The notes: generated from the sequence alone by a model not told the origin. Counted from the first letter of the stretch, positions 10,057-55,837 are shown. The stretch: DNA of 64,000 bases from an uncultured delta proteobacterium (GCA_963796685.1 CAWCMR010000010.1:96001-160000), one strand, 5' to 3'. Program-made: numbers and translations.

Positions 10057-10061
10057 AGATC

Positions 10062-32697: not shown

Positions 32698-33047
32698 TTA
32701 TGCGGAGCGCTCGATTATGCGGAGTTCAACCGTCCCCAAGTCCCGAGGCTCGCGTGTCCTGCGGACTGGACCGTCGCTGACTCCGCATAATATCAAGCCG
32801 ACGTCACCCAGGAGCGGAGGTCAGCGGTGTCTTGCTGGGCATCAGCGATGCGATGAGACGGTCCGGCGGCCGGAAGCGCCCGGGGCGTAGTCGGAGGGGC
32901 ACGATGGACTCGATAGCCTCGATCTTCTCGGTCGGATCGGCCTGCAGGTAGATCTCGGTGGTCGACTGGCTCGTGTGTCCGAGCCAGAGCGACACCTTGC
33001 GGAGATCCCCGGTGGCCCGGAGCGTGTCCAACGCGCATGTGTGCCGC
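32698..33047 (-). mobile_element. RIT-B terminal fragment (terminal repeat plus 3' tail of its third recombinase)
   Basis: Matches 48497-48846; encodes TCALDTLRATGDLRKVSLWLGH..TTEIY. Confidence 0.88.
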
Positions 33048-33166
33048 TTATGCCGTGCTCGGCATAAGCGGCATTATGCCGAGTCCCCGGTTATGCCGAG
33101 TTGCCCGCCATTGCATGCAGGAATCACGGGGACTTCGGGTTCGCTTACGTGCGCGACTCGGCATAA

Positions 33167-35097: not shown

Positions 35098-36325
35098 CGC
35101 CTGCCTCCTGGCCATGCAGGAGCGAGCGCACGTAGCGCATGGAAGTCTACCTTCGCGTAAATCGTCGTCGTATCGGCTCGACGGTGTCGCAGGACCTGCC
35201 CGATCTCGGTAAGGGTCGCTCCTCGGCGCAGCATCGAGCAGGCGAGCGCATGGCGGAGGATGTGCCCGCCTTTGCGTGGTGGGTCCAGTTCGGCGCGTTC
35301 CAGCGCTCGCTTCACGATCGTACAGACCGCGCCCGTGGTTGCGAAGCCACGCCGCGGCGCTCTCGCGCGGACGAAGACTCTCCGGCACGAGCATGCTGGG
35401 CGGCCATGGCGCAAGTACCGGGCGACGGCCTTGCCGACATCGGACGGCAACGGGAGGACGTCTTGCCGCCCACCCTTGCCGTGGACCCGCAACGTGCCTG
35501 CGGCCCAGTCGAAGTCTGCCAGATCCAGGCTCACGACTTCTCCACCGCGGAGGCCGAGTCGTGCCATCAGCATAATGACCGCGTGGTCGCGCAGGCCGGC
35601 TTCGGAGTTTCTTCGTCGACAGCGGCGCAACAGATGCTCGACGTCGCGCGCGGGGATCGATTTCGGCACCGTTGAGAAACGCCAGCAGGCGACCGCGGGA
35701 ACCGTGGCCGCGAGGTCTGCAGCCAGGGCTCTTTTCACGTGCACCCACCGCAGAAAACCGCGTAGGGCGGTAACCATCAGAGCGGCTCTCTTTGGATGGA
35801 CCACGTGAACATGCCGGACCAGAAATTCACCCGCATCCTGGGGCCCGAGCGCATTGAGGTGCACCTCCTGCCGTCGAACCGCTCCAGGAGGAACGAGCGG
35901 ACAATGGGCAGGTAGTTGATCTGAGTCAAGACGGACAAGCCGCGGTCCACCAACAGATACCGGCCGAACTCACTCACGATCCGCCCGATCGCAGTGTCAT
36001 CGACCTTGACGGGCGCTGGCGGCGCAAGACCGGCGGAACGGACCCGTTCAAGGACATCACGCAATGTCGCTGCGTCTCCACGCCGGGGTACGCAGGGATG
36101 GCGCCGGACAAAGCGGGCTACGGCCTGCTCGTCGACCTCCTCGACAGTCAGTCCTCGCCGTCCAAGCCAGTCTCCGAACTTCGCTGCCAGGCGCACCTTG
36201 CACGCCACGGTCGCAGGCGGATATCCCCTCTCAGTGAGCGTTTTTGCAAACGTGTCGAGGTGCGGACCCAAGGGGCCAGCGCGCAGTCGTTGCCATTTCA
36301 GAAAATCGTCGTGCATCCGGGGCAT
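35094..36325 (-). CDS. RIT-A first tyrosine recombinase, 1-bp frameshift near 35865
   Basis: Matches 49014-50246 except GGAGGTG versus GGAGGGTG. Confidence 0.88.
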
Positions 36326-37557
36326 GTGTCCTCCTTCGGCCCGGTGGCCAGAAGGAGACGACGACGCCCTGGTTATGCCGAGTCCGCAAGCCCACCTGCC
36401 GAGGAAATCGCCGTTGATCGCGCCAGATCGAGAGGCTCACTCGGCATAACCGGGGACTCGGCATAATGGCGCAAGACGTGGGCGCCTTTGAATGGAAAGG
36501 TCAGCCGCGCACGCGTGAAGGCCAGTCGGACAGCGGCTGTCACAGCCGAGGAGCTGAGCGGCTGGCCCACCGGCAGCTGGTGCCGGACGAACATGTGACG
36601 ATCGTCGGTGTGCGGCCGGCCGCGGCGTAGGTAGTCAACCAGTGCGCGCCCCACCGGTGCGGGCAGCGGCAGGACACTGGCCCGCCGCTCCTTTCCGCGA
36701 CCGACTCGCAAGGTGCCCGCCCGCCAATCCACGTCATCGAGCAACAGCGCAGCGACTTCGCCGGCCCGCAAGCCAAGCCCAGCCATGCACGAAACCATCG
36801 CGTAGTCCCGCCGTCCAGTCGCCGCGGTCAAGTCGAACGACGCAAGCAAGGCGGCGAGTTGCTCGTCGGACAGACCTCGGGGAAGATTCCCTCGGCGCCA
36901 ATGCGCCACCTTGGGAACAGCGGCTGCCAGTGTCCCTTCGCACAGGCCAGCGACTTGCGCAAATCGAAGGAAGCTACGCAACGCCGTTCGGACAAGCCCC
37001 GCCGCGCCCGGCGAGTACTTTCTGGTCTGCTCCGACACGAAGCCAATCAATTCCTTGGGCCCAAGCCGGCGCAGATCGATCTCGCCAGTCCCGTAGAGGG
37101 AAACCAGAAACCGACGAACGTGCAAGACGTTGCCCTGGCTGGTGGCATCGGTCACTCCGCACGTGTTTTGTCGGTAGGTCCTGAAGGACTCGAGCATACG
37201 GTCCACAGGCGTCTGCACTGGCCGCTGTGGGGGGGTGGCTACGCCCTGTGCGCGCAGCACGGCCAACACGTGGTCCAGTGCCGCCCGCATGTGACAACGC
37301 AACCCGTGTGGCACCCGACACTTGCATCGCGGGAGGTGCCCTTCCAGGAACGACGCTAGGGTAACTTCCCCCACCGCGTTCGGGCTGATCCTTTTGAGAT
37401 CTAACCAATGGGAGAAGTGGCCGGCTGCGCACAGGTACGATTGCCCGACTCTCGGTGTATGACCGCGCTTCTCCAAATGCGCAGCGACATCGTCAAGGAT
37501 CCCGCCCAGCGCTCCGCCGCGAAGGCGAGCCAGCACATAGTCATAGGTGAAAAACTT

Positions 37558-38968
37558 GGCTCTCCTGACATCTTCGTAAAGGGAGATCTCGTAGGTGCGA
37601 CGCACGTCGCCGACGGAGATGTGGGCGGCATGAGTTCCGGGTGAGGTGGAGACGAAGTGCGCACGGGCACCTGGGGTATCGTGTGGCTTGTCTGGAACCC
37701 ACAAGCCCAGGAGCCCATGCGCGCAACCACCCTATTCCGAAACCTACTCCAATTTCCACATACCCGTGTCCTGGCGGTCGAATTCGATCTGCTTGGCATA
37801 TTGGTGCACGTGGCGCCAACGACGACCGTTCCCTACTGTTCAGGCTGCGGATGTCGGGTCCATGACGTGTTCGATGCTCGGGCTCGGAACTGGCGGCATC
37901 TGGACGCGTGCGGGATGGAGGTTCTTCTGCGCTACACCCTGCGCAGGGTTGACTGTCCTCGGTGCGGCGTGGTCATCGAGATGGTCCCTTGGGCCGAGCC
38001 GAAGGTCGGCTTCACGCGTGACTTCGAGGACCATGTGGCCTATCTGGCCCAACAAGCAAGCCAGACGATGGTGGCCGAAACCATGCGCATCGCGTGGCGC
38101 ACCGTCGGCGCCATCATCCAGCGGGTGGTGCCGCGGCACCGAGATCCTAGCCTTCTCCTCGAGGACCTCGAACACATCGGCGTCGACGAGTTGTCGTACC
38201 GGCGGCACCATGAGTACGTCACCGTCGTTGTCGACCACGTCTCGCAGCGGGTCGTCTGGGCACACGAGGGCAAGAACGCTGCGACGCTCGGCTGCTTCTT
38301 CGACGCTCTCGGCCCGGAACGAACCAGCAAGCTCAAGACCGTCACCATCGACATGTCCGCGGCCTACATCGACGCGGTCACCTCGCGAGCGCCACAAGCG
38401 CAGATCGTCTTCGACCGCTTCCACGTTCAGAGACTCGTGCAGGAAGCACTCGACGAGCTCCGGCGTGCGGAGGTCCGACTCCTGGAGGACACCGACGAAC
38501 GCGGGCAACTGAAGAAGACCAAGTACCTTCTGCTCAAGAATCCGTGGAACCTATCCAGGGCCGAGTCTGAGAGGCTTTCGACCCTCCCGAAGACCAATGC
38601 CCGACTCTATCGCGGCTACCTGCTCAAGATCGCCATCTGCGACATCCTCGGTCGTCGCCAGGTCAACGTCGTCAAACAGAAGCTCGAAGAATGGATCAGT
38701 TGGGCCAGGCGATCCAGACTACCTTCCTTCAAGAAGGTCGCCGCGACCATCAAGAAATACCTGGACGGCATCGTGGCCATTGTCGCCACAGGGCTCAATA
38801 ACGGAAGAACCGAGGGCCTTAATGGCAAGATCAGGGTCATCACCCGCAGGGCCTATGGCTTCCACAACGCTCAAGCCCTCATTGGCTTCATCTTCCTCTG
38901 CTGCTCAGGCGTTGTCCTTCATCCCGTCTTCAAGGTGCCCGCGCTTCCATGAAGATGTCAGGAGAGCC
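37558..38968 (+). mobile_element. ISL3-family insertion sequence
   Basis: IR GGCTCTCCTGACATCTTC / GAAGATGTCAGGAGAGCC; flanks AAAAACTT and AAAAACTG (7/8 match, target duplication). Confidence 0.93.
37717..38952 (+). CDS. ISL3 transposase
   Basis: CxxC zinc finger, IGVDE, IDMS, DRFHV, EGLNGKIR..RRAYGF. Confidence 0.95.
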   Translation: MRATTLFRNLLQFPHTRVLAVEFDLLGILVHVAPTTTVPYCSGCGCRVHDVFDARARNWRHLDACGMEVLLRYTLRRVDCPRCGVVIEMVPWAEPKVGFTRDFEDHVAYLAQQASQTMVAETMRIAWRTVGAIIQRVVPRHRDPSLLLEDLEHIGVDELSYRRHHEYVTVVVDHVSQRVVWAHEGKNAATLGCFFDALGPERTSKLKTVTIDMSAAYIDAVTSRAPQAQIVFDRFHVQRLVQEALDELRRAEVRLLEDTDERGQLKKTKYLLLKNPWNLSRAESERLSTLPKTNARLYRGYLLKIAICDILGRRQVNVVKQKLEEWISWARRSRLPSFKKVAATIKKYLDGIVAIVATGLNNGRTEGLNGKIRVITRRAYGFHNAQALIGFIFLCCSGVVLHPVFKVPALP

Positions 38969-39107
38969 AAAAACTGCTCCAGCATGAGTGCTCCTTCCTG
39001 GCCAACAGGCCATCAAGAGCGCCCAAGACTATGCTGACAAACAGAACCCACCAATTCGAGCGACCCACCGGGAAATCCAGCACAGATCGCGTGCGGGTCA
39101 CGAGCAA

Positions 39108-39160
39108 CTCAGCATAATCCGAAACTCAGCATAGGACGGTCTATGCTGAGTTCAGCATAG
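39108..39160. mobile_element. RIT-C terminal repeat, 6-mer and 20-bp palindrome
   Basis: CTCAGCATAA-TCCGAAA-CTCAGCATAG / GACGGT / CTATGCTG-AGTT-CAGCATAG. Confidence 0.8.
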
Positions 39161-39757
39161 TCCATCCATCACGATGACGTGGAAGTGAACATTCAGATTC
39201 AGCGACGACCCGAACCGTTGCACGACGGTGAGGCTTCCGGTCTGCAGTCGGCCTCGAAGCTTGCGCATGCGTGCGCGGCGGCGGAGGTCGGAGTTGATGG
39301 CGCTGATGAATGCACCTAAAACCACGCTCGTGGCGTCGGGTGAATAGGCCATTTTGAAGCGCAAGGCATAGGGTAGCGAGAGCACATATTGCCGAGCAGG
39401 CACCTGGGGAAAAAGGTAATCTACGCAGAAAGCTGCCGTGTCTGCCATGCGGCGGCCAAGACAGCTCGGGCAAAATCCACGCCGCTTACACGCGAACGCC
39501 ACGACTCTGCTGTGCCCACAGTCTTTGCATCGGACGCGAAGAAGGCCGTGCACGAGGATGCCACAACGAAGGTAAGCCTCGATCTCGTCAAGCACGAAGG
39601 CGGGCAGCTCGCCGCCTCCTGATTCCAGATCTGCCAGGAACGTCGCCCAGTGTTCCTGTATCGTTCGATAAAGCAAAGTCGCTTCGAAGCTATGCCGCTC
39701 ATACGAGCCCGCGGGCGCGTGGGTGTGACAGCTTGCTGCTGGTTGCGTGGAAAGCAC
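39161..39757 (-). pseudogene. IS91-like transposase A, N-terminal fragment (Zn-binding domain and HUH motif)
   Basis: YLRCG...CKRRGFCPSC...RQYVLSLP...QRFGSSLNLNVHFHVIVMDG, then cut. Confidence 0.9.
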
Positions 39758-40230
39758 CAGCGGAAGTTCTCGGCAACACGGAGATACTTGTTGCTAGCGG
39801 AACGGGCCGACGACGAGACCTGTCAGGCCGACAGGAAGTGATGGATGCGACCTCGCCTAGGCCATAGGCGATTCGAAGAGGTCCTTTTTGAGCGTCGGAG
39901 AACCCTGCCGGACCGCATCGGCGCTGCCACGAGCACTTCTGCGTAGTGCGCTTGACCGGGTTTCTGGGGCCTGACGGGAGCTTTCTCAAGCACGCAGGGC
40001 AGTCTACTGCATCCCGCCCTTGTCGACGTGCCGTCAGTTCAGCCAGTCTCCGCCCTCGCCACCAGATTGCGAGGGAGGTGGTCGTGCGGGCCAGAGTTTT
40101 GGGGCGTCGGTGGGTAGCCTCATGGCAGACAGGATTTTCTGAGAAGCTGGCTCCAAGAAATGTAGTGCGAAAGTGGCAGTGAAGGCTTGTCCTTTTCCTC
40201 GGGTGTCGCCACGGCGGGGACGGGGACGAC

Positions 40231-40380
40231 TTGGGAGGTGGGATGATCGCGGCCAGTCTGGCAATGAGGGCCAGCGGCGCAAGTTCGATCGACGAGGTGG
40301 CGCCAGACCAAGGCCGCTTGAGCTCCAGCCTCACGAGTTTGTCATCCAGGATCTTCAGCCGGGCGTCGTCGCGACCTCGA
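40231..40380 (-). pseudogene. Additional IS91-like transposase internal relic
   Basis: RLELKRPWSGATSSIELAPLALIARLAAIIPPP. Confidence 0.65.
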
Positions 40381-40483
40381 CCTGTGCAACGCACAAAGAG
40401 GCCCGGAGAATGAAGGCTTCTCCGGATCTCGATCCGAACCCTTCATTTCTCATCCGTCTCTGTGTTCTCTGTGTCCTCTGTGG

Positions 40484-43400
40484 TTAGAATCCGGAAATTG
40501 CTCGGGTTTCAAACCGTTCGGTGCTCCACAGCACCTTCCCGTCTTCCTCGCTCCCCGCCGCGCCTTCCTCGCCGGCATCCTCGTCGTCCTCGGACAGGCC
40601 GCTTTTGCGGATCAAATCGAGCAGATCGTCGCCGTCCAGGCGATCGGCGGCGTCGGCGCCATCAAGGATGCTGGCCGCGAGCTGGCGCTTTTCTTCGTGC
40701 AGGGACAGCACGGCCTCCTCGATGGTTCCGCGCGCGACCATGCGGATGACGGTGACGGGACGCTCCTGACCGATGCGGTGGGCGCGGTCGGTGGCCTGAT
40801 CTTCGACGGCGGGGTTCCACCAGGGATCCAGGTGGATGACATACGTGGCCGCGGTCAGGTTCAGGCCGGTGCCCCCCGCGCGCAACGAGAGCAGGAAGGC
40901 GTCGGCGGTCCCGGCCTGGAAGGCGCGCACGCGCTCTTCACGCTCCGCCGCTGGCGTGGAGCCGTCGAGGGTCAGGGTGCGCAGCCCGGCCTGGGTCAAG
41001 AGTGGCCGCGCCAGATCGAGGAAGCTGGTGAACTGGCTGAAGACCAGGGCGCGATGGCCCTCGTCGCGTAGCTCGCCGAGCAGCTCGACCAGCGCGGTCA
41101 GCTTGGCCGAGCCGGCGGTGGCTTCCTTGACCACCAGGCGCGGGTGGCAGCACAGAAGGCGCAGCCGGGTGAGCGCGGCCAGGATCTTGATCCGCTGTCG
41201 AGCGTCGTCTCCGATCGCCGCGGCCGCGCTCTTGGCCAAGCTCTCCAGAATCTCCACGCGCGCGGCCTCGTACAGACGGCGCTCGGCGGGGCCGAGCTCG
41301 ATGGTCTGGTTCATTTCGGTGCGCGAGGGCAGCTCGGGCGCGACCTCGGCCTTGGTCCGGCGCAAGAGAAATGGGCGCACCGCGCGCGCCAGGGCAGCCT
41401 GCCGTTTGCCGTCGTGGTGGCGCTCGATGGGCAAGGCAAAGCGCTCGCGGAAGCGCTCCCACGAGCCGAGCAGGCCGGGCGTGACCAGGCGGAAGATGGC
41501 CCACAGCTCGCCCAGGTGGTTCTCGATGGGCGTGCCGGTGAGGGCCACGCGAAAGTCCGCCTGCACGTCGCGGACCGCGCGGAACCTGTGCGTGAGCGCG
41601 TTCTTCACCGATTGCGCCTCGTCGATGATCAGGGTGGAAAACGCAATCGCACCCAGCGCCTCGGCATCGCGCACGGCAATCGCATAGCTGGTCATGAGGA
41701 GCACACCTTTGCCCAAATTCTCCAGCAGCGCCGCGCGGCCGGGGCCGCGGTAGATGCGCGGCGCAAGCCCGGGGGCGAACTTGGCGCATTCGGCGGCCCA
41801 GTTGGCGACCACCGAGGTGGGTGCGATGACCAGCGCCGGTCCCAGCTCGGCGCGATGCAAGAGCAGCGCCAGGGCCTGCACCGTCTTGCCGAGGCCCATG
41901 TCGTCGGCGAGGCACGCGCCCAGTCCCCAGCTCGGCCAGCCGCGCCAGCCACTCGAATCCGCCGATCTGATAGTGGCGCAGCGTCGCCTGCAGGCCATCG
42001 GGCAGCGCCGCCGTCTCCGTGCGCGCGGCCTCCAGCTTGCCGAGCACGGCGCGGAACGCGGGCACCATGTCGAGCTGGCTTCGATCCTCCACCAGCTCGG
42101 CCAGCACCGGCGCAGCCAGCAGGCCGAGCTCGATCGCACCCTGGTTGTCGAACACCACGTCGTCGAGCGCGGCCAGCCGCTCGCGCAGGTCGTCCTCCAG
42201 CGTGGCGAAGCGGTGTGCGTTCAGCCTCACGTAGCGCCGGCCCGCCCGCACCGCAGCCAGCAACTCGGACAGCGGTACACGCGAGCCGTCGAGCTCGATC
42301 CCGCCCTCGGCGCCGAACCAGTCGCGCCGCCGGTTCACCTGCACCTTCAGCGCCGCGGGCGAGACGTGGTCGACGCGGATCTCGCCCGCCGGCCACTCGA
42401 CCTCGGCCAGCTCGGGCACGCCGCGCAGCTTGCGCAGCACCTCGAGCGCGTCCCCGTCGTCGGGAAGATCCCAGCGCCAGGCGCCGTTGGCAGTGGCCTC
42501 GTCGAGGCCGAGCACCCGCACCAGGTGCGCCGCACGCTCGCGTTCGGCGCCGAGCGCGCGCAGGGCGTGCAGGTGACGCCCGTCGCGTGCGTGCAGCACC
42601 TCGGCCGTGCCTTCGCCGGGGTGAAAGATCGGACCACTCTCGATGGGCCGTACCGCCATGTCCAGCCGCACCCCGGCCTCGGGTAGGGGCTCCAAACGGC
42701 ACAGCGTCGTGGCGGGAGGCTCCACGCGCTCGCCGCGCACCGACTCGGGCAATTGTAGATTCGAGCGACCCCTGCAGCCGCGGCAGCCGGCCCACGAGCT
42801 CGGCCAGACCCTCGGCGGGCAGGTTGACCGGGAATCTGGCCATGGCGTTCAGCAGAGCGGTCGTTTCAGGCTCGAGCAGAGTCAGGAGACATCGGTTGTT
42901 CTTGGCGTCCAGCCACACCCCATGCCGACCGTCCGTGGCCGAGCTGAGCAGGGCGGCCGGTTCGATCTCGGCGTGCCCAAGCCCAAGCTTGAGGCGGAAG
43001 CCGCCTTCGACAGGTTCCACCTTGAGCGTGGGTCGCACCTTGCGCACCGAAATGGGCACTGTGCGCGCAGGATCCGCGAACACGCGCGACGAGCCGGCCA
43101 GTGCGGCGAGCGCTCGCCAGACCTGGCGCGGTGTCTGTTCGCGGGCCGGGTAATAGTACCCGCGGTTGTCGCGCGAATACATGAGCCCCTCGAATGCCTC
43201 CCGATCGGCGACATCGCGCAAGAGCTTCTCGTTGCGCTCGAGCACATCGAGCTTGACTCGCTGGCCGCGCCCCCAGGTTCCGCGCTTGCCCAGTCGCTGC
43301 AGGACGGGATGGATCGCCAAGCCGTGCTTGCTCGCCAACTCCCAGACCAGACGCTGGCCCTGGTCGACCGCGGCGGGCGCGGTCTTGCCCAATCCCGCAT

Positions 43401-44622
43401 CGAGGTGATCGAGCAGGCGCGACCAACCTGGCACGCGCAAAAGCGGCGCCAGGGCCTCGGCCAGCGGATCCGCGGGATCGCGCAAGGCATCCAAGCACTC
43501 CTGGAGCGCCGTCGGACCGTGCGGGCAACGCGAGGGTTCGTGGCAGCGCGTGCACTCCAGACGCAGAACGCCGCTTTCCCAGGCAGCCAAGTGCAGGAAA
43601 AGCATCGTCTCGCCTTCGATGTTGGGCGTCCGCCCCTCGGAGACGGCCCATTCCCGATAGCTCAGGGTGAGCGCATCGGAGCCCACATCGATCCGTCCGG
43701 GCAAGAAGGTGCCGACGGGACGCGGCATGGCCGCGGCCGGCAGAAGCTCTTGTTGCCGTCGCAGGAGATCCTCGAAGCGTCGCAAGAAGGGATCGTCGAG
43801 AGGTCGGGCACGGTCGGAACGTTCGGCCTGCCGCTTGCTCGCGATGGCCACCGCCTGCGCCGCGCGGTGCAGGTGGGACTTGGCCATCCCTACGAGCTGG
43901 GAAGCCAGCGTGGCGCGGAAGTGCCTTGGGGCCGTGAGACTGGCCGGCGTGACCAACACCGACTCGCGGATGGTGCCGGGCAGTCCCTGGATTGCGAATC
44001 CATAGAACGAACGTCGCAGTTGGTCGAGGTTCACCTTGTCGGCGAGCCGATCTTTTACGCCGTATCGCTCGGCCCAGCGGTCCAGCGCCTCGGCATTTTG
44101 TGGCGGTGCCTCGACGGCGGGCAAGCTTTCGCGTGGCCTCGGCGGTGGCAACAGGTGCAAAGGATGGGCATCGGTGGACGACTCGAGCTCCTCACCGACG
44201 TAGGGAACAGGGTCGATTCCATCGTCATCGTCATCATCGTCATCGCCGGCTTCGATGTCATCGTCTTTGTCGTCGCCGGCTTCGATCTCACGGTGGACGT
44301 TGCCATCTCGCTCGCTCTGCGCGTCCGCCAGGCGTGAGCCGGGTCCGGCGGCGTGCATCTGCAGCCAATGCCACAGATCCTCGAGCACTAGTCGGGCGAT
44401 CTCAGACGAGTATCGATTGGCGAGCAAACCCTCTGCCTCGTTGGTGCAAAGGTCGCGGAGGCGGCCACTCCTCAGGATGCCGGCCACCGTGCTCACCGCG
44501 CTGACGACCTTGCGGGAAGACCCATGAGAATCGAGAAATTCTCTGACAGATAGGTCAAGCGCCGACGCGTCGCCGGTGACTTCCAGCGCTGCGGGAATGG
44601 CTGCGAGGCTCTTCGGGATCAT
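40484..44622 (-). CDS. SNF2-family helicase with SWIM-like zinc finger, two frameshifts (about 42750 and 41925)
   Basis: CTRC...CPH; LADDMGLGKT, DEAQ, TGTPIEN, VFSQF, GGTGLNL, QATDRAHRIGQ. Confidence 0.88.
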
Positions 44623-44771
44623 GACGGGGTTCTTTATCGGGCAGAGAGGCGCGTCAGTTGCCTCCCTTCTCGGTTATCACATCTGGCCCGCGTTGGGCGA
44701 GCAGCAACTAACGCTGCGCGAGAATGGTGTTTGGGCGATTCGCAGCTCGCCTCGGTTTCTTCAAGCGACCG

Positions 44772-47312
44772 TCAGGCAGGCGATTGTTCGCTGGCCTTGG
44801 TCTCGCCGTTCGCCTCGCTCCGGCGTCGCCACCACAGCAGCGCTGCCGGCAAGACGATCACGGCGACGGTCAGGCAGGTGATCTCGCCCATGACGGCGAG
44901 GAAGCCGAAGTAGTAGAGGCCCACGTTCTTGGCCACCAGCAGCGACGAGTAGCCGATGATGGTGGTGACGGAGCATAGGCTGACGGCACCGCCGGTGCCG
45001 CGGATGGCGGCGCCCACGTCGCGCCCACCGTCGCCCACGTAGCGGGCCATGACATTCACGGCGTAGTCCACGCCGATGCCGAAGGTGATGGGGAAGGCGA
45101 TGAAGTTGATGAAGTTGATCTTGATCCGCATGACCATGCACAAGGCCAGCATCCACAGCACGCCGACGAGCAGCGCGGACAGCACGTAGGGCGTGGCCAT
45201 GCCGCCGCGGAAGAGCAGCACCACGGTCAGCACCACGCCGAAGAAGGCCAACAGCGAGGCCAGGGGTCCGTCGTGACGCATGGACGCGATGATGTCCGCC
45301 GTGAGCGGCGGCCCTCCGGCCAATCTGGCCGCCTTTCCACCCATGGCTTCCGGCACGCGCGCGATGGCTCGCAGGGCTTTGACGAAGGCCGCGTTGCTCG
45401 GCCCGTCCCACAGCTTGGCCGTGAGCTTGGGGAAGATGAGGACGGCGCGGTCGGCGTGCCCGTCGCGCTCCTTGAGCCCCTTGAGGAGGGTCGTGGGGAT
45501 GTCGCTGGCCTCGATGGTCGGAATCGTTCCCTGACCGAGGAAACGGTCCACCATCTTGCGCTGCTCCTCGGTGAGGTTGGCGCGCACGTTCGGCGTCAGC
45601 TTCTTTCGGATGAGCTCGATCTCTTGCCGGCGCTCGGCCTGATCGGGCGGTACCAAATCGTCCAGGGTGCGGATGCTCGCCACCATGTCCTTGAGCGGTG
45701 GCGAGAGCATGGCCTTGCGCAGCTCGCGTGCGATGGCCCTGGTCTCCTCGGGCCCTCCGGTGAGCATCACGAGCGGGGTCAGGTACTGCCCCAAGAGCGC
45801 ATCCATCTTGTGCCCCCAATAACCTTCGCCGCTCTTCCACGTGTCCGCGCGGCGCAGGCGCGCGAGATCGTATTCGAGCTGGCCGCCGTCGAATCCGCGT
45901 ACCTCGACCATGGCGAGCACAGAAACTACGCCGGCCAGGATCAGGATCAGGTGTGGGGCGCGCGCGACCATGCGCGCGACCCTGGCCATGGGTTGGAACT
46001 TCGCGAACAGGCGCAACGACGACGGCTCGGCGTGCGGCTCCTTGCGATCCATCCAGGCGATGAGCGAGGGCGCGAGGACGAAGGTCGTGCACCAGGCGAG
46101 CACCATACCCAGGCCGCCAATGATGCCGAATTGCCGGAACCCGCGAAACTGCATGGCGATGAGCGAGGCGTAGGACACCGCCGCGGCCAAGGCCGCCGAG
46201 AGCGTGCCCACGCGCGTTCCCCACAGACTGCGTGCCAGGGATTCGCGGACATCCTGACCGGCCCGCCGCTCTTCCATGTAGCGCGCAAGCTGGACGATGC
46301 CGAAGTTGATGCCGTTGCCCACGATGATCGAGCCCAGGAAGGCCGTGTTGGAATTGAGCACGTGCACACCGAGCAGGTTGGCCAGGGCGAAGGCGTAGAC
46401 CGTGGACAGACCGAGCGGCAGGAGCAGCGCCACCACGCAGGGCCACCAGCGAAAGAAGACCAGCAGCGCCAGGCCGACGGCGGCCACCACCAGCAGCGAG
46501 GACAGGGTGAGATCCTGCACCAGCGCCGAGGTTTCCTCGGACGAGATGGCCACGTCGCCGGTGTAGCCCACGCGCATGCCCTTGGCGTAGGCCGCGGGCC
46601 CCCCCAGCGCTGCCACGTCCTTGGCCACTCGACCCATCAGCTCCCTGGCCAAGTGGGCGTTGGTGGTGAACCCTCCGGTTTCGATGAGCAGGAGCGACAG
46701 TCCCATGCTCGGACTGGTGAATCGATCCCCGACCAGGTGCTCCCAGGCCGAGCTCTGCGGGTAGCGCGCCTCGATGTCGGAAAAGTCGAGCGGCGGGGCC
46801 GGCTCGTCCTCGTCGATGAGGGTGCCCGCGCGTTTGCCATATTCGTAACGCACGCGCTCTTCCAGGCGTTCGCGGATGGTTTGCAGATCCGCCTTGTCGA
46901 TGAGCAGGGGAGCGTCGCGTTCGATGAAGGCTCTTTCGGCCGCGAAACCTACGCGCACGCCCCCCACCAACGCGCTCGGATAGGCGCGTACCCGCGCGGC
47001 CAGATCGTCGATGAAGCGCTGGGCAGCGGCGATGCGATCGGGTGGGGCGTTCTCGCCCACGTCGGCCAGCACACCCAGAAACTGCAGCCCCGGCATGCGC
47101 CGCCGCAGCTCCTCGACCGCGCGCACGCTCTCGGCCTCGGGAGGCAGAAGCTCCTCCATGTCGCTGTGCAGGTTTGCGTACAGGTGCGCCGTGCGCCACG
47201 TGGCGGGAATGGCGAGCAGGAGGGCCAGGAGCCAAAGCAGTCGGCCGTGTCGAAGAAGCCAGGCGACGAATGCGCGACTTGTCTCGCGCGGTGGAGCGGT
47301 ATCGGGAATCAC
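44772..47312 (-). CDS. MMPL/RND family lipid transporter
   Basis: Two repeats of periplasmic loop plus TM bundle; GNGINFGI and GIGVDYAV motifs. Confidence 0.9.
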   Translation of the reverse strand: MIPDTAPPRETSRAFVAWLLRHGRLLWLLALLLAIPATWRTAHLYANLHSDMEELLPPEAESVRAVEELRRRMPGLQFLGVLADVGENAPPDRIAAAQRFIDDLAARVRAYPSALVGGVRVGFAAERAFIERDAPLLIDKADLQTIRERLEERVRYEYGKRAGTLIDEDEPAPPLDFSDIEARYPQSSAWEHLVGDRFTSPSMGLSLLLIETGGFTTNAHLARELMGRVAKDVAALGGPAAYAKGMRVGYTGDVAISSEETSALVQDLTLSSLLVVAAVGLALLVFFRWWPCVVALLLPLGLSTVYAFALANLLGVHVLNSNTAFLGSIIVGNGINFGIVQLARYMEERRAGQDVRESLARSLWGTRVGTLSAALAAAVSYASLIAMQFRGFRQFGIIGGLGMVLAWCTTFVLAPSLIAWMDRKEPHAEPSSLRLFAKFQPMARVARMVARAPHLILILAGVVSVLAMVEVRGFDGGQLEYDLARLRRADTWKSGEGYWGHKMDALLGQYLTPLVMLTGGPEETRAIARELRKAMLSPPLKDMVASIRTLDDLVPPDQAERRQEIELIRKKLTPNVRANLTEEQRKMVDRFLGQGTIPTIEASDIPTTLLKGLKERDGHADRAVLIFPKLTAKLWDGPSNAAFVKALRAIARVPEAMGGKAARLAGGPPLTADIIASMRHDGPLASLLAFFGVVLTVVLLFRGGMATPYVLSALLVGVLWMLALCMVMRIKINFINFIAFPITFGIGVDYAVNVMARYVGDGGRDVGAAIRGTGGAVSLCSVTTIIGYSSLLVAKNVGLYYFGFLAVMGEITCLTVAVIVLPAALLWWRRRSEANGETKASEQSPA

Positions 47313-47619
47313 TGCCCGCGCACTATACCCATTGGACCATGCCTTAGCGCGAATTTAACCCTTCAGGATTTTCGCATCTTCTCCGACTGCCTCCATGCTC
47401 ACGTGCCCGCCCACCAAACTTTTTGATCAGGACGGAGACTAGGGTGCGATCCAGGTTTGACCGTTCGACGTGCAGGCCATCTTCCCGGTGTCGGCGTTCC
47501 CCGTGTAGAGCCAGGCGGTGACCGTCTGCGAAGCTCCGGCGGCCGTCGACTTGACCCGGCACCGTCCATCGGCGCCCAGGTGCGAGCATGCCGATGAGGC
47601 GGCACCGTCCGTGCCGGTG

Positions 47620-47845
47620 CAGGCGTTGCGCTGCCCCGTCCGATGGCGACGGGGATGAGCAAGCCCGCGCCTGTCTGCGTCGGCGAGAAAGCGAGCGAGA
47701 GAACCGTTGTCCGCAACCAGGTCCTTGCACGCCGGGCACTCGTCAAGATGCCGCTTGGCCTCGGGCGAGGCGGTGTCGCCGCCACCCAGGACCCTTTGCC
47801 TGATCTGCGTGCAGTCCATGTCAGCTATCTCGCGGCATTTTCTCA
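47620..47845 (-). pseudogene. Truncated duplicate of the anti-sigma gene at 62878-63720
   Basis: MDCTQIRQRVLGGGDTASPEAKRHLDECPACKDLV versus MDCAQIRQRVLGGGDAASPEAKRHLDECPACRDLV; internal deletion. Confidence 0.8.
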
Positions 47846-47918
47846 TCGCTGCCTGGTAGGTCTCGTCCGCGGCGCGTTCCGCTAGCAACAAATATCGCCG
47901 TGTTGCCGAGAGGTCCCG

Positions 47919-48470
47919 TTGGTGCTTTCCACGCAACCAGCAGCAAGCTGTCACACCCACGCGCCCGCGGGCGCGTATGAGCGGCATCGCCCCGAAACAA
48001 CTTTGCTTTATCGAACGAGAAAGGTCACGCGCTACGTAGGGCAGCTCACCGGAGAGGACAGGGATCAGCAGCTGACCCTTGAGCATCTGGCCAATTCTTC
48101 CGTGCAAGGGCTGGTCGCGACGGGGCCACGCCGAGGCTGTCGAGTGTTGCGCCTAGGAGGTACCCGCGAACATGCCCAGGCGGCCATCATAGGCAAGAGA
48201 TGTGCAGATGTGGCCGGTTTCAACGTGCACGCCAACGTGCGCGTGGGCGCCAACGACCGCGACGGCCTCGAACATTTGTGCCGATACCTTGCTCGACCAC
48301 CCATCGCGAATGACCGATTGCAAGAGCTGCCCGACGGCCGACTTGCCTTGCGCTTCAAGCAAGTTTGGCGGGATGGCACGACCCAAATCGTATTCACGCC
48401 GCACGAGCTGATAGAGAAGCTGATCCCATTGATTTCCCGCCCTCGCTGCCATCTGGTCCGATAACACGGC
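47919..48470 (+). pseudogene. IS91-like transposase B, N-terminal part with internal deletion
   Basis: Same N-terminus as copy A, then GFNVHA...LEHLCRYLARPP...WRDGT...PRCHLVR-stop-HG; Zn domain and HUH absent. Confidence 0.85.
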
Positions 48471-48602
48471 TTATGCGGTGCTCTGCATAACCCGTGTTAT
48501 GCGGAGCGCTCGATTATGCGGAGTTCAACCGTCCCCAAGTCCCGAGGCTCGCGTGTCCTGCGGACTGGACCGTCGCTGACTCCGCATAATATCAAGCCGA
48601 CG

Positions 48603-48846
48603 TCACCCAGGAGCGGAGGTCAGCGGTGTCTTGCTGGGCATCAGCGATGCGATGAGACGGTCCGGCGGCCGGAAGCGCCCGGGGCGTAGTCGGAGGGGCA
48701 CGATGGACTCGATAGCCTCGATCTTCTCGGTCGGATCGGCCTGCAGGTAGATCTCGGTGGTCGACTGGCTCGTGTGTCCGAGCCAGAGCGACACCTTGCG
48801 GAGATCCCCGGTGGCCCGGAGCGTGTCCAACGCGCATGTGTGACGC
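48603..48846 (-). pseudogene. RIT-B third recombinase, 3' part
   Basis: RHTCALDTLRATGDLRKVSLWLGH continues the SPHTLRH end at 52267. Confidence 0.85.
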
Positions 48847-49013
48847 TTATGCCGAGCACGGCATAAGCGGCATTATGCCGAGTCCCCGGTTATGCCGAGT
48901 GAGCCTCTCGATCTGGCGCGATCAACGGCGATTTCCTCGGCAGGTGGGCTTGCGGACTCGGCATAACCAGGGCGTCGTCGTCTCCTTCTGGCCACCGGGC
49001 CGAAGGAGGACAC

Positions 49014-50246
49014 ATGCCCCGGATGCACGACGATTTTCTGAAATGGCAACGACTGCGCGCTGGCCCCTTGGGTCCGCACCTCGACACGTTTGCAAAAACG
49101 CTCACTGAGAGGGGATATCCGCCTGCGACCGTGGCGTGCAAGGTGCGCCTGGCAGCGAAGTTCGGAGACTGGCTTGGACGGCGAGGACTGACTGTCGAGG
49201 AGGTCGACGAGCAGGCCGTAGCCCGCTTTGTCCGGCGCCATCCCTGCGTACCCCGGCGTGGAGACGCAGCGACATTGCGTGATGTCCTTGAACGGGTCCG
49301 TTCCGCCGGTCTTGCGCCGCCAGCGCCCGTCAAGGTCGATGACACTGCGATCGGGCGGATCGTGAGTGAGTTCGGCCGGTATCTGTTGGTGGACCGCGGC
49401 TTGTCCGTCTTGACTCAGATCAACTACCTGCCCATTGTCCGCTCGTTCCTCCTGGAGCGGTTCGACGGCAGGAGGGTGCACCTCAATGCGCTCGGGCCCC
49501 AGGATGCGGGTGAATTTCTGGTCCGGCATGTTCACGTGGTCCATCCAAAGAGAGCCGCTCTGATGGTTACCGCCCTACGCGGTTTTCTGCGGTGGGTGCA
49601 CGTGAAAAGAGCCCTGGCTGCAGACCTCGCGGCCACGGTTCCCGCGGTCGCCTGCTGGCGTTTCTCAACGGTGCCGAAATCGATCCCCGCGCGCGACGTC
49701 GAGCATCTGTTGCGCCGCTGTCGACGAAGAAACTCCGAAGCCGGCCTGCGCGACCACGCGGTCATTATGCTGATGGCACGACTCGGCCTCCGCGGTGGAG
49801 AAGTCGTGAGCCTGGATCTGGCAGACTTCGACTGGGCCGCAGGCACGTTGCGGGTCCACGGCAAGGGTGGGCGGCAAGACGTCCTCCCGTTGCCGTCCGA
49901 TGTCGGCAAGGCCGTCGCCCGGTACTTGCGCCATGGCCGCCCAGCATGCTCGTGCCGGAGAGTCTTCGTCCGCGCGAGAGCGCCGCGGCGTGGCTTCGCA
50001 ACCACGGGCGCGGTCTGTACGATCGTGAAGCGAGCGCTGGAACGCGCCGAACTGGACCCACCACGCAAAGGCGGGCACATCCTCCGCCATGCGCTCGCCT
50101 GCTCGATGCTGCGCCGAGGAGCGACCCTTACCGAGATCGGGCAGGTCCTGCGACACCGTCGAGCCGATACGACGACGATTTACGCGAAGGTAGACTTCCA
50201 TGCGCTACGTGCGCTCGCTCCTGCATGGCCAGGAGGCAGGCGATGA
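49014..50246 (+). CDS. RIT-A first tyrosine recombinase
   Basis: LGLRGGEV, HGKGG, HILRH, LRHR..TTTIYAK. Confidence 0.93.
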   Translation: MPRMHDDFLKWQRLRAGPLGPHLDTFAKTLTERGYPPATVACKVRLAAKFGDWLGRRGLTVEEVDEQAVARFVRRHPCVPRRGDAATLRDVLERVRSAGLAPPAPVKVDDTAIGRIVSEFGRYLLVDRGLSVLTQINYLPIVRSFLLERFDGRRVHLNALGPQDAGEFLVRHVHVVHPKRAALMVTALRGFLRWVHVKRALAADLAATVPAVACWRFSTVPKSIPARDVEHLLRRCRRRNSEAGLRDHAVIMLMARLGLRGGEVVSLDLADFDWAAGTLRVHGKGGRQDVLPLPSDVGKAVARYLRHGRPACSCRRVFVRARAPRRGFATTGAVCTIVKRALERAELDPPRKGGHILRHALACSMLRRGATLTEIGQVLRHRRADTTTIYAKVDFHALRALAPAWPGGRR

Positions 50247-51178
50247 ATACGCTCCGCGAGGGCGCCGAGGAGTACCTGTCGCTGCGACGCCGTCTGGGCT
50301 ACAAGCTCGACCGCTCGGGGCGGTTACTGCTGCAATTTGTGTCCTTCATGGAGCAGCGGAAGGCTCCGTTCATTACCAACGATCTGGTCGTCGAATGGGC
50401 CGTGCGGCCGACCAAGACCCAGCCCGTGTATTGGGCCAGCCGGCTATCGGCGGTCCGGCTCTTTGCACAGTATTGGCGCGCCACCGATTCTCGCACCGAG
50501 GTCCCTGCCCTCGGGCTCCTCCGGGCTCGGTATCAACGCAAGCGCCCCTACATATACAGCGAGGACGAGATCATGCGGCTGATGGATGCGGCGGCACGGC
50601 TCCCATCGCAGACGGGGCTTCGTGCTCAGACCTACGTCACGCTGCTTGGCCTGCTCACCGTGGCCGGTCTGAGGATCAGCGAGGCGATCGCTCTCGACCG
50701 CGAGGATGTTGACCTCGAAGGCGGGATCCTGACAATCCGCCGGACCAAATTCGGGAAGACCCGGCTGGTGCCCATTCATCGATCGACGAAACTGGCACTT
50801 TGCCGGTACGCACGCTTCCGTGATCGCGTTCATCCAACACCACGGACGAGAAGCTTCTTCGTCGGCGAGACAGGTGCCCGGGTGGTGAAGAACACTGCAG
50901 AAGACACCTTCGTCCATCTGTCTCGCCGGATTGGGCTTCGTGGTCCTGAAGGTCGTCACGGTCATGGGCCGCGTCTGCATGACCTTCGGCATCGGTGGGC
51001 CGTGGACACCATGCTGCGCTGGTACCGGGCAGGAGTCGATGTGGAGCGGCACCTGCCGCAGCTGTCGACCTACCTCGGGCACACCCACGTCAGTGATACC
51101 TACTGGTACCTGACCGCAGTGCCCGAGTTGATGAGCCTCGCCATGTCGCTCCTGGAGCGAGATAGGACGTCGCCGTGA
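50243..51178 (+). CDS. RIT-A second tyrosine recombinase
   Basis: ATGA overlap; HDLRH, YLGH, TYWY. Confidence 0.93.
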   Translation: MNTLREGAEEYLSLRRRLGYKLDRSGRLLLQFVSFMEQRKAPFITNDLVVEWAVRPTKTQPVYWASRLSAVRLFAQYWRATDSRTEVPALGLLRARYQRKRPYIYSEDEIMRLMDAAARLPSQTGLRAQTYVTLLGLLTVAGLRISEAIALDREDVDLEGGILTIRRTKFGKTRLVPIHRSTKLALCRYARFRDRVHPTPRTRSFFVGETGARVVKNTAEDTFVHLSRRIGLRGPEGRHGHGPRLHDLRHRWAVDTMLRWYRAGVDVERHLPQLSTYLGHTHVSDTYWYLTAVPELMSLAMSLLERDRTSP

Positions 51179-52173
51179 AGCCCTCCCACGGATTCCCTGC
51201 GCTGCTTGAGTCCTTCTTCGTGGACCATCTCCTGCGCCAGCGTCAAGCAAGTCCACATACAGTGCAGAGCTATCGCGATACCTTCCGCCTACTGCTGGCC
51301 TTCACGAAGCAGCACCTGAAGAAGACTCCCTCGGCGCTCGCACTGGACGACCTCGACACACCAACGATTGGCGCGTTCCTGGATCACATCGAGAAGGACC
51401 GCGGCAACTCTCCGCGCACCCGCAACGCCAGGCTCGCGGCGATCCACTCCTTCTTCCAGTACGCCGCCCTCCAGGCGCCCGACTACAGCGCCGTCATCCA
51501 GAGGGTTCTGGCCATGCAGGGCAAGAAATACGATCGCGAGCTCGTCCACTTCCTGTCCCGGCCCGAGATCGACGCACTCCTCGAAGCTCCCGACAAGGCC
51601 ACATGGTCCGGCCGGCGCGATCGCGCCATGCTCCTTGTGGCCGTTCAGACCGGGCTGCGCGTATCCGAGCTGGCCGCGCTCAACGTGCAGGACGTGGTCC
51701 TCGGACCCGGCGCGTACGTTCACTGCCTCGGCAAGGGCCGCAAGGAACGTTGCACGCCCCTGCGCAAAGAGGCCGTCTCGGTCCTCCGGGCGTGGCTGCG
51801 CGAACGTGCCGCCACCGGGACCGAGCCCCTCTTCCCCAACGCGCGGGGCGGTTTCCTCAGTCGCGACGGCGTCGAGTACCTGCTCGCGAAACACGTGCAG
51901 GTCGCTCGGATCCGCTGCCCCTCGCTGAGGGCGAAGCATGTGTCTCCGCACGTGCTGCGCCACTCGACGGCAATGGATCTCCTTCAAGCCGGTGTCGACA
52001 GCTCGGTGATCGCGCTCTGGCTTGGTCACGAGTCGGTCGAGACCACGCAGATCTACTTCGCTGCCAGTCTCCAGCTCAAAGAGCGAGCGCTGGCCAAGAC
52101 AGCACCCTCGGCAGCGCGACCTGCTCGCTTCCACCCCGACGACAAGCTCCTCGCCTTCCTACAGAGCCTTTGA
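51175..52173 (+). CDS. RIT-A third tyrosine recombinase
   Basis: GTGA overlap; catalytic R..K..HxLRH..LGH..Y residues present. Confidence 0.93.
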   Translation: MKPSHGFPALLESFFVDHLLRQRQASPHTVQSYRDTFRLLLAFTKQHLKKTPSALALDDLDTPTIGAFLDHIEKDRGNSPRTRNARLAAIHSFFQYAALQAPDYSAVIQRVLAMQGKKYDRELVHFLSRPEIDALLEAPDKATWSGRRDRAMLLVAVQTGLRVSELAALNVQDVVLGPGAYVHCLGKGRKERCTPLRKEAVSVLRAWLRERAATGTEPLFPNARGGFLSRDGVEYLLAKHVQVARIRCPSLRAKHVSPHVLRHSTAMDLLQAGVDSSVIALWLGHESVETTQIYFAASLQLKERALAKTAPSAARPARFHPDDKLLAFLQSL

Positions 52174-52266
52174 TTATGCCGAGTCGCGCACGTAAGCGAA
52201 CCCGAAGTCCCCGTGATTCCTGCATGCAATGGCGGGCAACTCGGCATAACCGGGGACTCGGCATAA

Positions 52267-53033
52267 TGCCGCAGCGTGTGTGGCGAAACACTTCTGCCGG
52301 CCAGCGATGGGCACGCGACCGCTGCGGCGGCAACGTGCTTGCGAAGCACATATTCGAAGCCCGAGCGCGACATAGGGTGAGCGGTGGCCGCGAGGAACAA
52401 CTCGGGACAGGAGGCAGTGCCTCGGATGGCGAGCCAGGCGCGGATAGCGTCGCCTACTTCCTTCCACAGCAGGAGCGCGCGCTCCTTGCGACCCTTGCCG
52501 AGCACGCAAATCTCGACGTAGCGGCCGTCGAAGCGCACGTTGTCGAGGCGCAGCCCGACGAGCTCGGAGACACGCAATCCGCCAGTGAGTGCGAGGTAGA
52601 GCATGGCGCGGTCGCGAATGCCGAGACGCGACGCTGGGTCCGGCGCGTCGAGGACGGCACGCGATTCCGTGGCCGACAGATGTTTCACCAGGCGGGTGTC
52701 GGTGCGCTGCAACGGGATCGCAAGCACGCGCTGGATCTGGTCGAGCGCCGCGGGAACGCGATACTCGATGAAGTGCATGAAGGATCGGACGGCGGCCAGC
52801 CGCGTGTTGCGTGAGCGGGCGCCGTTGCCGCGCTCGCGTTGGATGTGGTCGAGGAATGCCAGCACGAGAGACGCGTCGATGTGCTCGATCTGGATCTCGG
52901 AGGGCGTTACGCCCAGGCGCCTGCTTGCGAACGCGAACAAGAGTTGGAAGGCATATGCATAGGCGACGCGCGTATTTTCACAGGTGATCCGCTCACGAAG
53001 AAACGCGGTGATGTGTGGAGCGATCGGGGTCAT
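52267..53033 (-). pseudogene. RIT-B third recombinase, 5' part, cut at SPHTLRH
   Basis: MTPIAPHITAFL...GLRVSEL...GKGRKER...SPHTLRH, then RIT-A IR. Confidence 0.88.
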
Positions 53034-55176: not shown

Positions 55177-55341
55177 TGTTTCCTCCTCGGTGGACGGGTC
55201 GGGATCATCCCGGCCCTGAGAGGAGGACACCTCCGTTATGCTGAGCCGTCTAGGGCGCGCCACGCGGTCAACTACCCGCCGACACGCAGGGATCGTGACG
55301 GGCACATCGCGGCACTCCGCATAATCGAGCGCTCCGCATAA

Positions 55342-55758: not shown

Positions 55759-55837
55759 CGACCCTGGGGCTCCAGAAGTGGGGCCGGGATAGGCCATGTC
55801 CATGGCTACACCGCCTCGCAAAATGGGCTTGTTTTCC

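Follow-up and report, generated by a model that had tools for sequence, protein, structure and literature searches.

RIT elements have reportedly been described by Van Houdt et al. in 2009 and 2012, by Ricker et al. in 2013 and by Nielsen et al. in 2017. According to the portions of the literature drawn on here, they were described in 2009 and are present in many bacterial phyla, and they consist of neighbouring genes that overlap, ritA, ritB and ritC, within ~3.4-3.5 kb, bounded by terminal inverted repeats and found as identical copies within a genome (PMC3414803; PMC5737581). Two core-binding domains are reported for RitA in the sections consulted, and for RitC an additional helix at the C terminus (PMC8138268). 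The same excerpts mention in passing a palindrome beside a RIT and insertions into transposase genes (PMC3414803; PMC5737581), and describe RIT mobility, target specificity and movement as untested (PMC3414803; PMC10214605, Table 1; PMC8138268; PMC5737581). Here we analyse a 64,000-nucleotide stretch of DNA from an uncultured delta proteobacterium (GCA_963796685.1 CAWCMR010000010.1:96001-160000; hereafter the window), which holds three RIT families, RIT-A (two copies), RIT-B and RIT-C, nested in each other and in two IS91-like transposase genes. An earlier note, made from the sequence alone, had proposed that the 6-mers at the junctions of these elements are a footprint of previous target genes, in the manner of Tn916.

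The coupling sequences of Tn916 (6 bp) and CTnDOT are non-homologous, are carried in the excised circle and are left at the new site, and both elements recombine despite heterology in the overlap. These elements are conjugative, use one integrase together with Xis, have low target specificity, and show neither a palindrome nor an inverted relic. The carry-over of 6 bp is the part of the Tn916 parallel that stands; as the closest analogue, however, Tn916 gives way to Tn554 and the SE elements. Unlike Tn916-type elements with a single Int, Xis and conjugation genes, the 3.4-kb RIT unit holds three recombinase genes only, and we claim no RIT membership in the Tn916/CTnDOT group. Tn554 and the SE elements are tyrosine-recombinase transposons that make no true target duplication; a new insertion receives, on one particular side, a copy of the six bases that bordered the element on one flank at the donor site, as stated in the available part of the source (PMC10214605). 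The RITs of the window likewise place a foreign 6 bp on one constant side, namely the palindrome side, in three of three decidable events. Unlike Tn554 and SE elements, they encode three Xer-like recombinases without a TnpC, Srap or Tfp partner; the gene sets TnpA/TnpB with TnpC, or IntA/IntB with Tfp and Srap, are not found in them, and the behaviour is thus the same but the family different. The window RITs further differ in two features that the same part of PMC10214605 does not describe for Tn554/SE, a 20-bp palindrome and an additional 6-mer in inverted orientation, and in choosing as targets conserved-motif codons in the genes of other mobile elements.

Judged from sequence comparison, what appears to be new here is 6-bp carry-over in RITs, together with the palindrome, the inverted relic and the targets in conserved mobile-element codons. 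The excerpts of the RIT literature at hand (PMC3414803, PMC10214605, PMC8138268, PMC5737581) contain no 6-bp crossover sequences or carry-over, no Arg-His, His-Gly or Asp-Gly targets, and no fixed host-6-RIT-6-palindrome-6-host form; Ricker et al. 2013 may bear on each of these points. Full-text searches of the literature at hand found no newer work on RIT mechanism. As developed below, the carried 6-mers very probably come from earlier, homologous target genes. The anatomy of the junctions gives testable rules for where strands cross, what the mobile unit is, and which side keeps the target sequence and which the carried one, and the carried 6-mers would serve as a short travel log that tells which hosts a given element copy had before.

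RIT-A, RIT-B and RIT-C belong to the RIT family, as judged by which genes they contain, how these overlap, what the ends look like and how the copies behave. They share with described RITs the gene trio, the overlaps, the ~3.4-kb length, the inverted terminal arms and the near-identical copies. In each, three genes that overlap by 4 bp code for Xer-like tyrosine recombinases with HxxRH...Y motifs; HxxRH and a downstream tyrosine were confirmed in the five proteins checked (RIT-A ritA, ritB and ritC; RIT-B ritA and ritB). Pfam PF00589 matches all of them, and NCBIfam offers no RIT-specific model, every match of a Rit protein there being Xer-like and below cut-off. The RIT-A unit is 3394 bp long, with nothing but the three recombinase genes between its ends, and its RitA (410 aa) has ~115 additional N-terminal residues ahead of the Xer-like match. 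Three 10-bp arms, TTATGCCGAG, stand at either end. The RIT-B arm is TTATGCGGAG, and the RIT-C arms are CTATGCTGAG and CTCAGCATAA. For the end motif TTATGCSGWG, 25 occurrences were counted in the window, where 0.23 would be expected. The genome that holds the window (G000) has five RIT-A copies on four contigs, with 99.9-100 % identity, and the two copies in the window (copy 1, minus strand, 33074-36466; copy 2, plus strand, 48873-52266) have opposite orientations and differ solely by one base in a GGG run.

Every insertion has the same architecture: host–6-mer–RIT–inverted 6-mer–20-bp palindrome–6-mer–host. The palindrome, on which the earlier note was silent, parts the inverted 6-mer from the host-side 6-mer and consists each time of two element arms (33048-33067, 39141-39160, 48471-48490 and 48847-48866); for RIT-A it is two outer arms abutted, TTATGCCGAG.CACGGCATAA, 20 bp in all. 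In host-gene sense, the five RIT-A insertions read h5'-X1-[RIT-A]-TGCCGC-palindrome-X3-h3', with RIT-A in either orientation and the palindrome constantly on the 3' side of the target. RIT-B and RIT-C are arranged as the mirror image, their palindrome lying 5' of the element, h5'-X1-palindrome-rcX2-[RIT]-X3-h3', where rcX2 is the reverse complement of X2 (three RIT-B loci with palindrome plus the tail remnant at 32692, and two RIT-C copies). X1 to X3 denote these 6-mer positions; sequencing runs with similar names are always called runs. The palindrome is flanked to the left and to the right by the arrangement arm'-6-mer-arm, whose 6-mers point in opposite directions on the two sides and which by its sequence would be a classical tyrosine-recombinase core site. 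Because the asymmetric centre of the palindrome keeps one polarity in the element frame, whether before ritA or after ritC (AGCA for RIT-A, AGAGCACC for RIT-B), we infer that RIT plus palindrome acts as a circularly permuted unit that opens at either core site.

Two simpler origins of this arrangement were considered and rejected. The palindrome could have been a 20-bp mini-element inserted alone; this reading fails because its flanking 6-mers are inverted, not direct, with 31 of 78 pairs perfectly inverted in the survey described below and a direct repeat in one locus only (L049). Alternatively, the RIT could have inserted beside a pre-existing palindrome, but the empty allele lacks the palindrome, and the 6-mers on either side of the RIT are inverted and not direct repeats. 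An inversion was also considered for the odd left flank of the RIT-C copy on contig C12 of G000, and this too was rejected, since the inner 6-mer is interrupted by a group II intron; once the intron is removed, the junction reads GATGGC-palindrome-GCCATC-RIT-C. The intron itself (L039, G000:C12:24000-40000, positions 2453-4528) separates the RIT-C palindrome from the head arm (G|intron|CCATC), is recognised by the Rfam models RF02001 and RF00029, and carries a frameshifted open reading frame (ORF) for reverse transcriptase and maturase. It is placed directly after the 20-32-bp palindrome, as with stem-loop-seeking introns.

The targets are equally regular. RIT-A sits exactly at the Arg-His codons of the HxLRH motif in recombinase genes: RIT-B ritC (HTLRH, then TCALDTL) for window copy 2 and on G000:C11, RIT-C ritA (HVLRH, then TAATRMV) on G000:C12 and at the right side of window copy 1, and RIT-B ritB (HDIRH) on G000:C25. 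RIT-B sits at the His-Gly codons of IS91-like Y2-transposase genes (...LVRY-HG-ILGP), and RIT-C at the Asp-Gly codons directly after the HUH motif (...HFHVIVM-DG) of such genes. Homologues 80-90 % identical in other genera use the same targets (G101 for RIT-B, G064 for RIT-C). Since these targets are catalytic or conserved codons in the recombinase and transposase genes of other elements, these RITs are parasites of other mobile DNA.

Every junction 6-mer listed in the earlier note is present in the window. At RIT-C, 39135-39166 reads GACGGT (39135-39140), the palindrome CTATGCTGAGTTCAGCATAG, and TCCATC (39161-39166; GATGGA in host sense, as reverse complement). At RIT-B, 48465-48496 reads CACGGC (48465-48470), TTATGCGGTGCTCTGCATAA, and CCCGTG (48491-48496; reverse complement CACGGG), and CATGGC (His-Gly) follows at 55342-55347; CCCGTG recurs, as the note had said, at the border of host and RIT-B tail (32692-32697; CACGGG, His-Gly, in host sense). 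RIT-A copy 1 adjoins a perfect 32-bp palindrome at 33042-33073, made of TGCCGC (33042-33047), TTATGCCGTGCTCGGCATAA, and GCGGCA (33068-33073), and has TGGCGC at its other side (36467-36472; reverse complement GCGCCA, from ttG CGC CAc of HVLRH), the same as in the empty allele in G064. RIT-A copy 2 is preceded at 48841-48872 by TGACGC (48841-48846; reverse complement GCGTCA), TTATGCCGAGCACGGCATAA, and GCGGCA (48867-48872), and is followed by TGCCGC (52267-52272; GCGGCA, from ctG CGG CAc of HTLRH), the same as in its empty allele. It also holds that the 6-mers of one element differ solely at wobble positions: in the frame of the interrupted genes, all variable positions are codon third positions (GAY GGN, CAY GGN and xxG CGN CAx). 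By position alone, the chance that all variable positions fall on two wobble positions of six is 1/15 x 1/15 x 1/3, or ~0.0015.

This periodicity bears on the proposal that each 6-mer is a constant component of an element end and mimics the target, with variation at positions that the recombinases ignore and a three-base period that is coincidental. The spacers of tyrosine-recombinase core sites do often tolerate some change. However, the period follows the frame of each target, with variation at positions 3 and 6 for RIT-B and RIT-C and at positions 1 and 4 for RIT-A, and the RIT–host junction matches the empty allele of each host (GCGCCA, CCGGCA, GCGGCA and GAGGCA), even to the leading C of CCGGCA, which is part of a host Ile codon. 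We therefore regard fixed element ends as a very unlikely source of the pattern.

Further evidence comes from comparing junction 6-mers with empty alleles of the targets, a check that the earlier note had proposed. For window copy 2, contigs of three public sequencing runs (runs X1, X4 and X20) join 48840 to 52267, skipping 3426 bp (6+20+6+3394, the interval 48841-52266). These contigs carry an intact RIT-B, present as a whole unit in a single contig in run X20. Over the tail, runs X1 and X4 agree with the window at every base, and in the next 160-220 bases they show three differences, none within the 6-mer; TGCCGC at the empty RIT-B site was checked letter by letter in these two runs, the differences of run X20 not all being listable. 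Because the unoccupied target in runs X1 and X4 is TGCCGC without a palindrome, the TGACGC at 48841 is foreign and came with the element. Among public sequencing runs screened for words sampled from the window, none had a fraction above 0.45.

Two further events point the same way. For RIT-A in RIT-C ritA on G000:C12, X1 is GCGCCA and X3 is GCGGCA, and the uninterrupted RIT-C ritA homologue in G064 (90 %) has GCGCCA. At locus L032 of G004, a 90 % relative of RIT-A has X1 = GAGGCA and X2 = X3 = CAGGCA, and two uninterrupted orthologues of its host in G002 (91 %) both have GAGGCA. Thus, in all three decidable events (C10-2/C11, C12 and G004 L032) the foreign 6-mer lies on the palindrome side and the native 6-mer where the RIT meets the host. 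For each foreign 6-mer there is also a second target of the family to which it is native: RIT-B ritC for GCGGCA; the other G004 host, with this spelling in all three 6-mers, for CAGGCA; and the RIT-B homologue of G101 (80 %) for GCGTCA. The inference that 6 bp are carried over from earlier homologous targets is supported by these three empty-allele events and by the nativeness of the foreign 6-mers elsewhere.

Could the 6-mers instead be an ordinary target duplication that mutated after insertion, or sequencing errors, with nothing carried between sites? Copies do differ by single bases, and the 1-nt indel in the G run of RIT-A copy 1 could be a read error. Yet six insertions have unequal outer 6-mers (RIT-A on C12, RIT-A C10-2, the G004 relative, RIT-B in the window, RIT-B on C11 and RIT-C on C12), and all six differences fall on wobble positions of an already disrupted gene, while the elements and the 345-bp flank are otherwise 100 % identical. 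C10-2 and C11 independently share TGACGC, and other genomes show AGG/CGN swaps of 2-3 bases that retain arginine. This explanation is consequently extremely improbable.

The RIT-B tails provide a further comparison. One tail (48497-48840) belongs to the RIT-B that RIT-A copy 2 splits, the body lying at 52273-55341, and the second is at 32698-33041. The two are identical at 345 of 345 positions and, as had been pointed out, only the adjoining 6-mer differs (TGCCGC at 33042, TGACGC at 48841). The same 345-bp tail adjoins GCGGCA in two copies (C10-1 and C25) and GCGTCA in two (C10-2 and C11). These data weigh on the possibility that homologous recombination or gene conversion between RIT copies and paralogous hosts, not transposition, produced the mixed 6-mers. 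There are indeed chimeric copies (window copy 1, where RIT-C ritA is joined through the RIT-A to a RIT-B tail, and the C25 copy, where RIT-B ritB is likewise joined to a ritC tail), and five near-identical 3.4-kb repeats favour such exchange. But exchange inside a RIT shifts whole flanks and cannot swap a 6-mer while leaving the 345-bp flank and the palindrome on its two sides identical; a foreign 6-mer is borne also by simple insertions that are not chimeric (C12, C10-2 and G004), and the inner 6-mer has no homologous partner. We judge recombination between copies to be a decidedly unlikely origin of the mixed 6-mers.

At the RIT-B hosts, CACGGG travels with the RIT-B tail, since it abuts the host at 32692 and the palindrome at 48491. 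Uninterrupted homologues of the IS91-like host of RIT-B have CACGGC in nine of ten cases and CATGGC in one (n = 10, after an eleventh row was dropped as a spurious short match), and the CACGGG on C11 was, on this sequence comparison, probably imported. In three IS91-like homologues (L174, L175 and L177, in G072, G068 and G063) a different insertion stands ~90 bp upstream of the His-Gly site, corresponding to window ~48373; it starts CGACTACGCTTCACA and its ends are not RIT-like.

The synonymous pattern extends well beyond this genome. The consensus palindrome TTATGCCGAGCTCGGCATAA occurs at no fewer than 124 loci in one-genome-per-species contigs, of which 80 were fetched and 78 were usable. 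By record titles, these loci belong to Verrucomicrobiota, Planctomycetota, Actinomycetota, Bacillota and Acidobacteriota, among others, as well as Nitrospirota, Desulfobacterota, Myxococcota, Chloroflexota and Proteobacteria. A RIT end lies beside the palindrome on one side at 54 loci, on both sides at two and on neither at 22; the criterion was rough (at most three mismatches to the arm motif), and some of the 22 have another arm type. The flanking 6-mers are perfectly inverted in 31/78 loci and have one to three differences in 43/78, distributed over positions 1 to 6 as 20, 13, 6, 29, 3 and 6, with peaks at positions 1 and 4. Arg-His-type 6-mers account for 28 loci, where 19 pairs differ, and 14 of these 19 keep N-Arg-CA on both sides, often by AGG/CGN swaps of two or three bases. 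Random changes of equal number keep N-Arg-CA in a mean of 2.6 pairs and a maximum of 9 (20,000 trials), versus the 14 observed. Two coding origins account for this pattern; mutation after insertion and loose DNA recognition do not. The palindrome, exactly conserved across distant phyla, is also a ready marker for annotating RIT boundaries. At four loci (L098, L078, L099 and L055) the same 20-bp palindrome adjoins a quite different end motif, GTTTAGTYCAA, and therefore the palindrome is more conserved than the arms of the elements beside which it lies.

From these observations we propose that crossover would take place at the 6-mers, as the overlap sequences of arm'-6 bp-arm core sites for tyrosine recombinases. 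A RIT would move with one 20-bp palindrome of two abutted outer arms, such that the unit is RIT plus 6-mer plus palindrome and carries two core sites, to the left and right of the palindrome, whose 6-mers are oriented oppositely; such a two-site intermediate is suggested by the junctions. Integration would occur at a host sequence that encodes a conserved motif (Arg-His for RIT-A, His-Gly for RIT-B, Asp-Gly for RIT-C), with strand exchange at the borders of the 6-mer between a similar target and whichever core site of the element is used. The RIT–host junction would then retain the target's own 6-mer, the palindrome–host junction would receive the element-borne 6-mer, and the unused core site would be left behind as the inner, inverted 6-mer. 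Successive targets would be homologous genes with the same amino acids in other codons, and because they spell the same amino acids differently, the 6-mers of one element would differ just at synonymous positions.

The earlier note had read the inverted inner 6-mer as a record of an earlier host; the inner 6-mer is indeed constantly a synonymous version of the same codons, as in 14 of the 19 differing Arg-His-type pairs from other genomes, and it may be such an older record. The tolerance of overlap mismatches that the note also deduced would follow only if the strands are exchanged on either side of the 6-mer. That the foreign 6-mer keeps to one side may reflect either a one-sided copy, as in Tn554/SE elements, or the chance segregation of a heteroduplex, with three events to judge by.

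Other observations weigh against the carry-over of exactly 6 bp from earlier targets. For two of the three 'native' 6-mers the evidence is a homologue of no more than 90-91 % identity, and drift occurs at wobble positions. In G101, the RIT-B homologue (80 %), for which a search did not find the head end, has GCGTCA where contigs 97-100 % identical have GCGGCA, and GCGTCA was accordingly dropped as the native spelling. For RIT-B in the window the imported side is undecidable, and CATGGC at 55342 could be native, as in one of ten homologues. In addition, bases just past the palindrome-side 6-mer also differ from the empty alleles. The three RIT-B-occupied hosts in G000 (window 48462-48464, C11 and C25) read CGA TAA CAC GGN, with a stop codon where the uninterrupted IS91-like homologues have TAC or TAT in 10/10 cases. 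Similarly, the L032 host in G004 has TTGC after the imported CAGGCA, versus CAGC in the empty G002 orthologues (L189 and L192). The changed base in the TAA of the RIT-B hosts equals the last base of the element arm, and the TT of L032 equals the first two bases of the arm, and is also as in the second G004 host (CAGGCA-TTCC). A strict 6-bp overlap fails to explain these changed bases in the RIT-B hosts and G004, and fixed overlaps of 7 or 8 bp were tried, neither of which suits all junctions; for the TAA, either the exchanged segment exceeds 6 bp or TAA alleles are better targets. The chimeric copies show that recombination between copies also reshuffles junctions. The evidence is comparative throughout, and a simple circle accounts for the polarity of the palindrome but not for its existence.

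One possible answer to this last point lies with the telomere resolvases (TelK, TelN and ResT), relatives of the tyrosine recombinases that cut a perfect palindrome 6 bp apart around the dyad. The consensus RIT palindrome has a self-complementary centre, GAGCTC. Unlike resolvase systems, the RITs present no observed hairpin end and the Rit proteins score Xer-like only, such that we treat the likeness as a mechanistic lead and not as membership. It is conceivable, though rather improbable in our estimate, that RITs move not as simple circles but as linear, hairpin-capped 'dumbbell' molecules with a full core site (arm'-6-arm) at each end. One Rit protein would be telomere-resolvase-like, splitting the 20-bp palindrome into two hairpins and later joining hairpins once more, and the other two would exchange strands at the 6-mer, with the palindrome being a pair of fused hairpins. 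If true, this mechanism would account for the abutted-arm palindrome with the GAGCTC centre across many phyla, for the inversion of the inner 6-mer, for the fixed palindrome side with either RIT orientation, and for the ~1 RIT in 10 with a palindrome at both ends. It would also account for exonuclease-resistant RIT DNA without circle junctions: the portion at hand of a study of the Sphingobium mobilome reports that RIT DNA was exonuclease-resistant and that circle junctions were not found (PMC5737581). Metagenome contigs were searched for a palindrome flanked left and right by RIT ends, as a circle, a tandem or a head-to-head dimer would show; the exact pattern had no match and the relaxed pattern one, cut by the contig end. 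Direct evidence came from it for neither the circle nor the hairpin form.

Several rearranged forms accompany the simple insertions. Five RITs have a palindrome at both ends (L070/L071, L076/L077, L088/L089, L100/L101 and L116/L117), and the coding sequences that flank them on the outside are homologous and inverted relative to each other, with ~85 % likeness across 120 nt or more in two pairs. Some palindromes, L063 and L108 among them, stand alone between two diverging 3' parts of recombinase genes. All these forms can arise by recombination among the three kinds of site, or by hairpin fusion. In the window, the chimeric copy 1 would be most simply explained by an original state in which a minus-strand IS91-like gene (39167-39828 plus 32233-32691) held RIT-C at its Asp-Gly and RIT-B at its His-Gly codons. 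Each of these would have borne a RIT-A in the same direction, and exchange between the RIT-A copies would have deleted the intervening DNA.

The remaining features of the window can be read along its length. The 3' part of an IS91-like Y2-transposase gene (32233-32691, minus strand; starts HGIFGPAAKD..., by translation and tblastn) is host to the RIT-B remnant and forms an 84 % inverted repeat with 55281-55806. The remnant at 32698-33041 (minus strand) comprises the terminal arms and the end of ritC after Leu-Arg-His. RIT-A copy 1 (3393 bp: ritA, ritB and ritC) lacks one G from a GGG run at 35864-35865 (element position 604), which splits ritA into two ORFs; the missing G is either a real frameshift or a homopolymer read error. 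RIT-C is present as a head part only (36473-39134, minus strand), with terminal arms CTCAGCATAA/CTCAGCATAG and the 5' part of ritA, up to HVLRH, at 36473-37556. Inside it, at ~37557-38975, is an insertion sequence (IS) of the ISL3 family with inverted ends GGCTCTCCTGAC and an apparent 7-8-bp duplication, AAAAACT; ~15 more copies of this IS end lie elsewhere in the genome. The 5' part of an IS91-like gene follows (39167-39828, minus strand; Pfam Zn_Tnp_IS91 and Y2_Tnp) and ends ...NVHFHVIVM-DG, the HUH motif and then Asp-Gly.

On the plus strand, the 5' part of the second IS91-like gene (47851-48464) ends ...PRCHLVR-TAA, and its 3' part (55348-55760) starts ILGPAAKDRAKVV. Between the two parts lie the RIT-B tail (minus strand; end of ritC after Leu-Arg-His and terminal arms), RIT-A copy 2 and the RIT-B body (minus strand; ritA, ritB, the 5' part of ritC and the head arms). 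RIT-A copy 2 (3394 bp) has ritA at 49014-50246, ritB at 50243-51178 and ritC at 51175-52173, all in one orientation, with ATGA and GTGA as the overlaps. The three Phage_integrase ORFs of RIT-B are at 53935-55572, 53030-53959 and 52053-53033, and its unit of ~3420 bp corresponds to one whole contig of 3423 nt in run X20.

The two IS91-like genes face each other, with an 89 % inverted repeat between 39655-39828 and 47851-48024, and ~8 kb with an SNF2-family helicase gene and an MMPL transporter gene separate them; the facing genes and the DNA between them may be a composite unit. Elsewhere in the window, 9684-10147 holds two 86-nt tRNA-like repeats (91 % alike) with three 83-nt tandem repeats between them, and a 300-nt direct repeat is found at 10326 and 10854.

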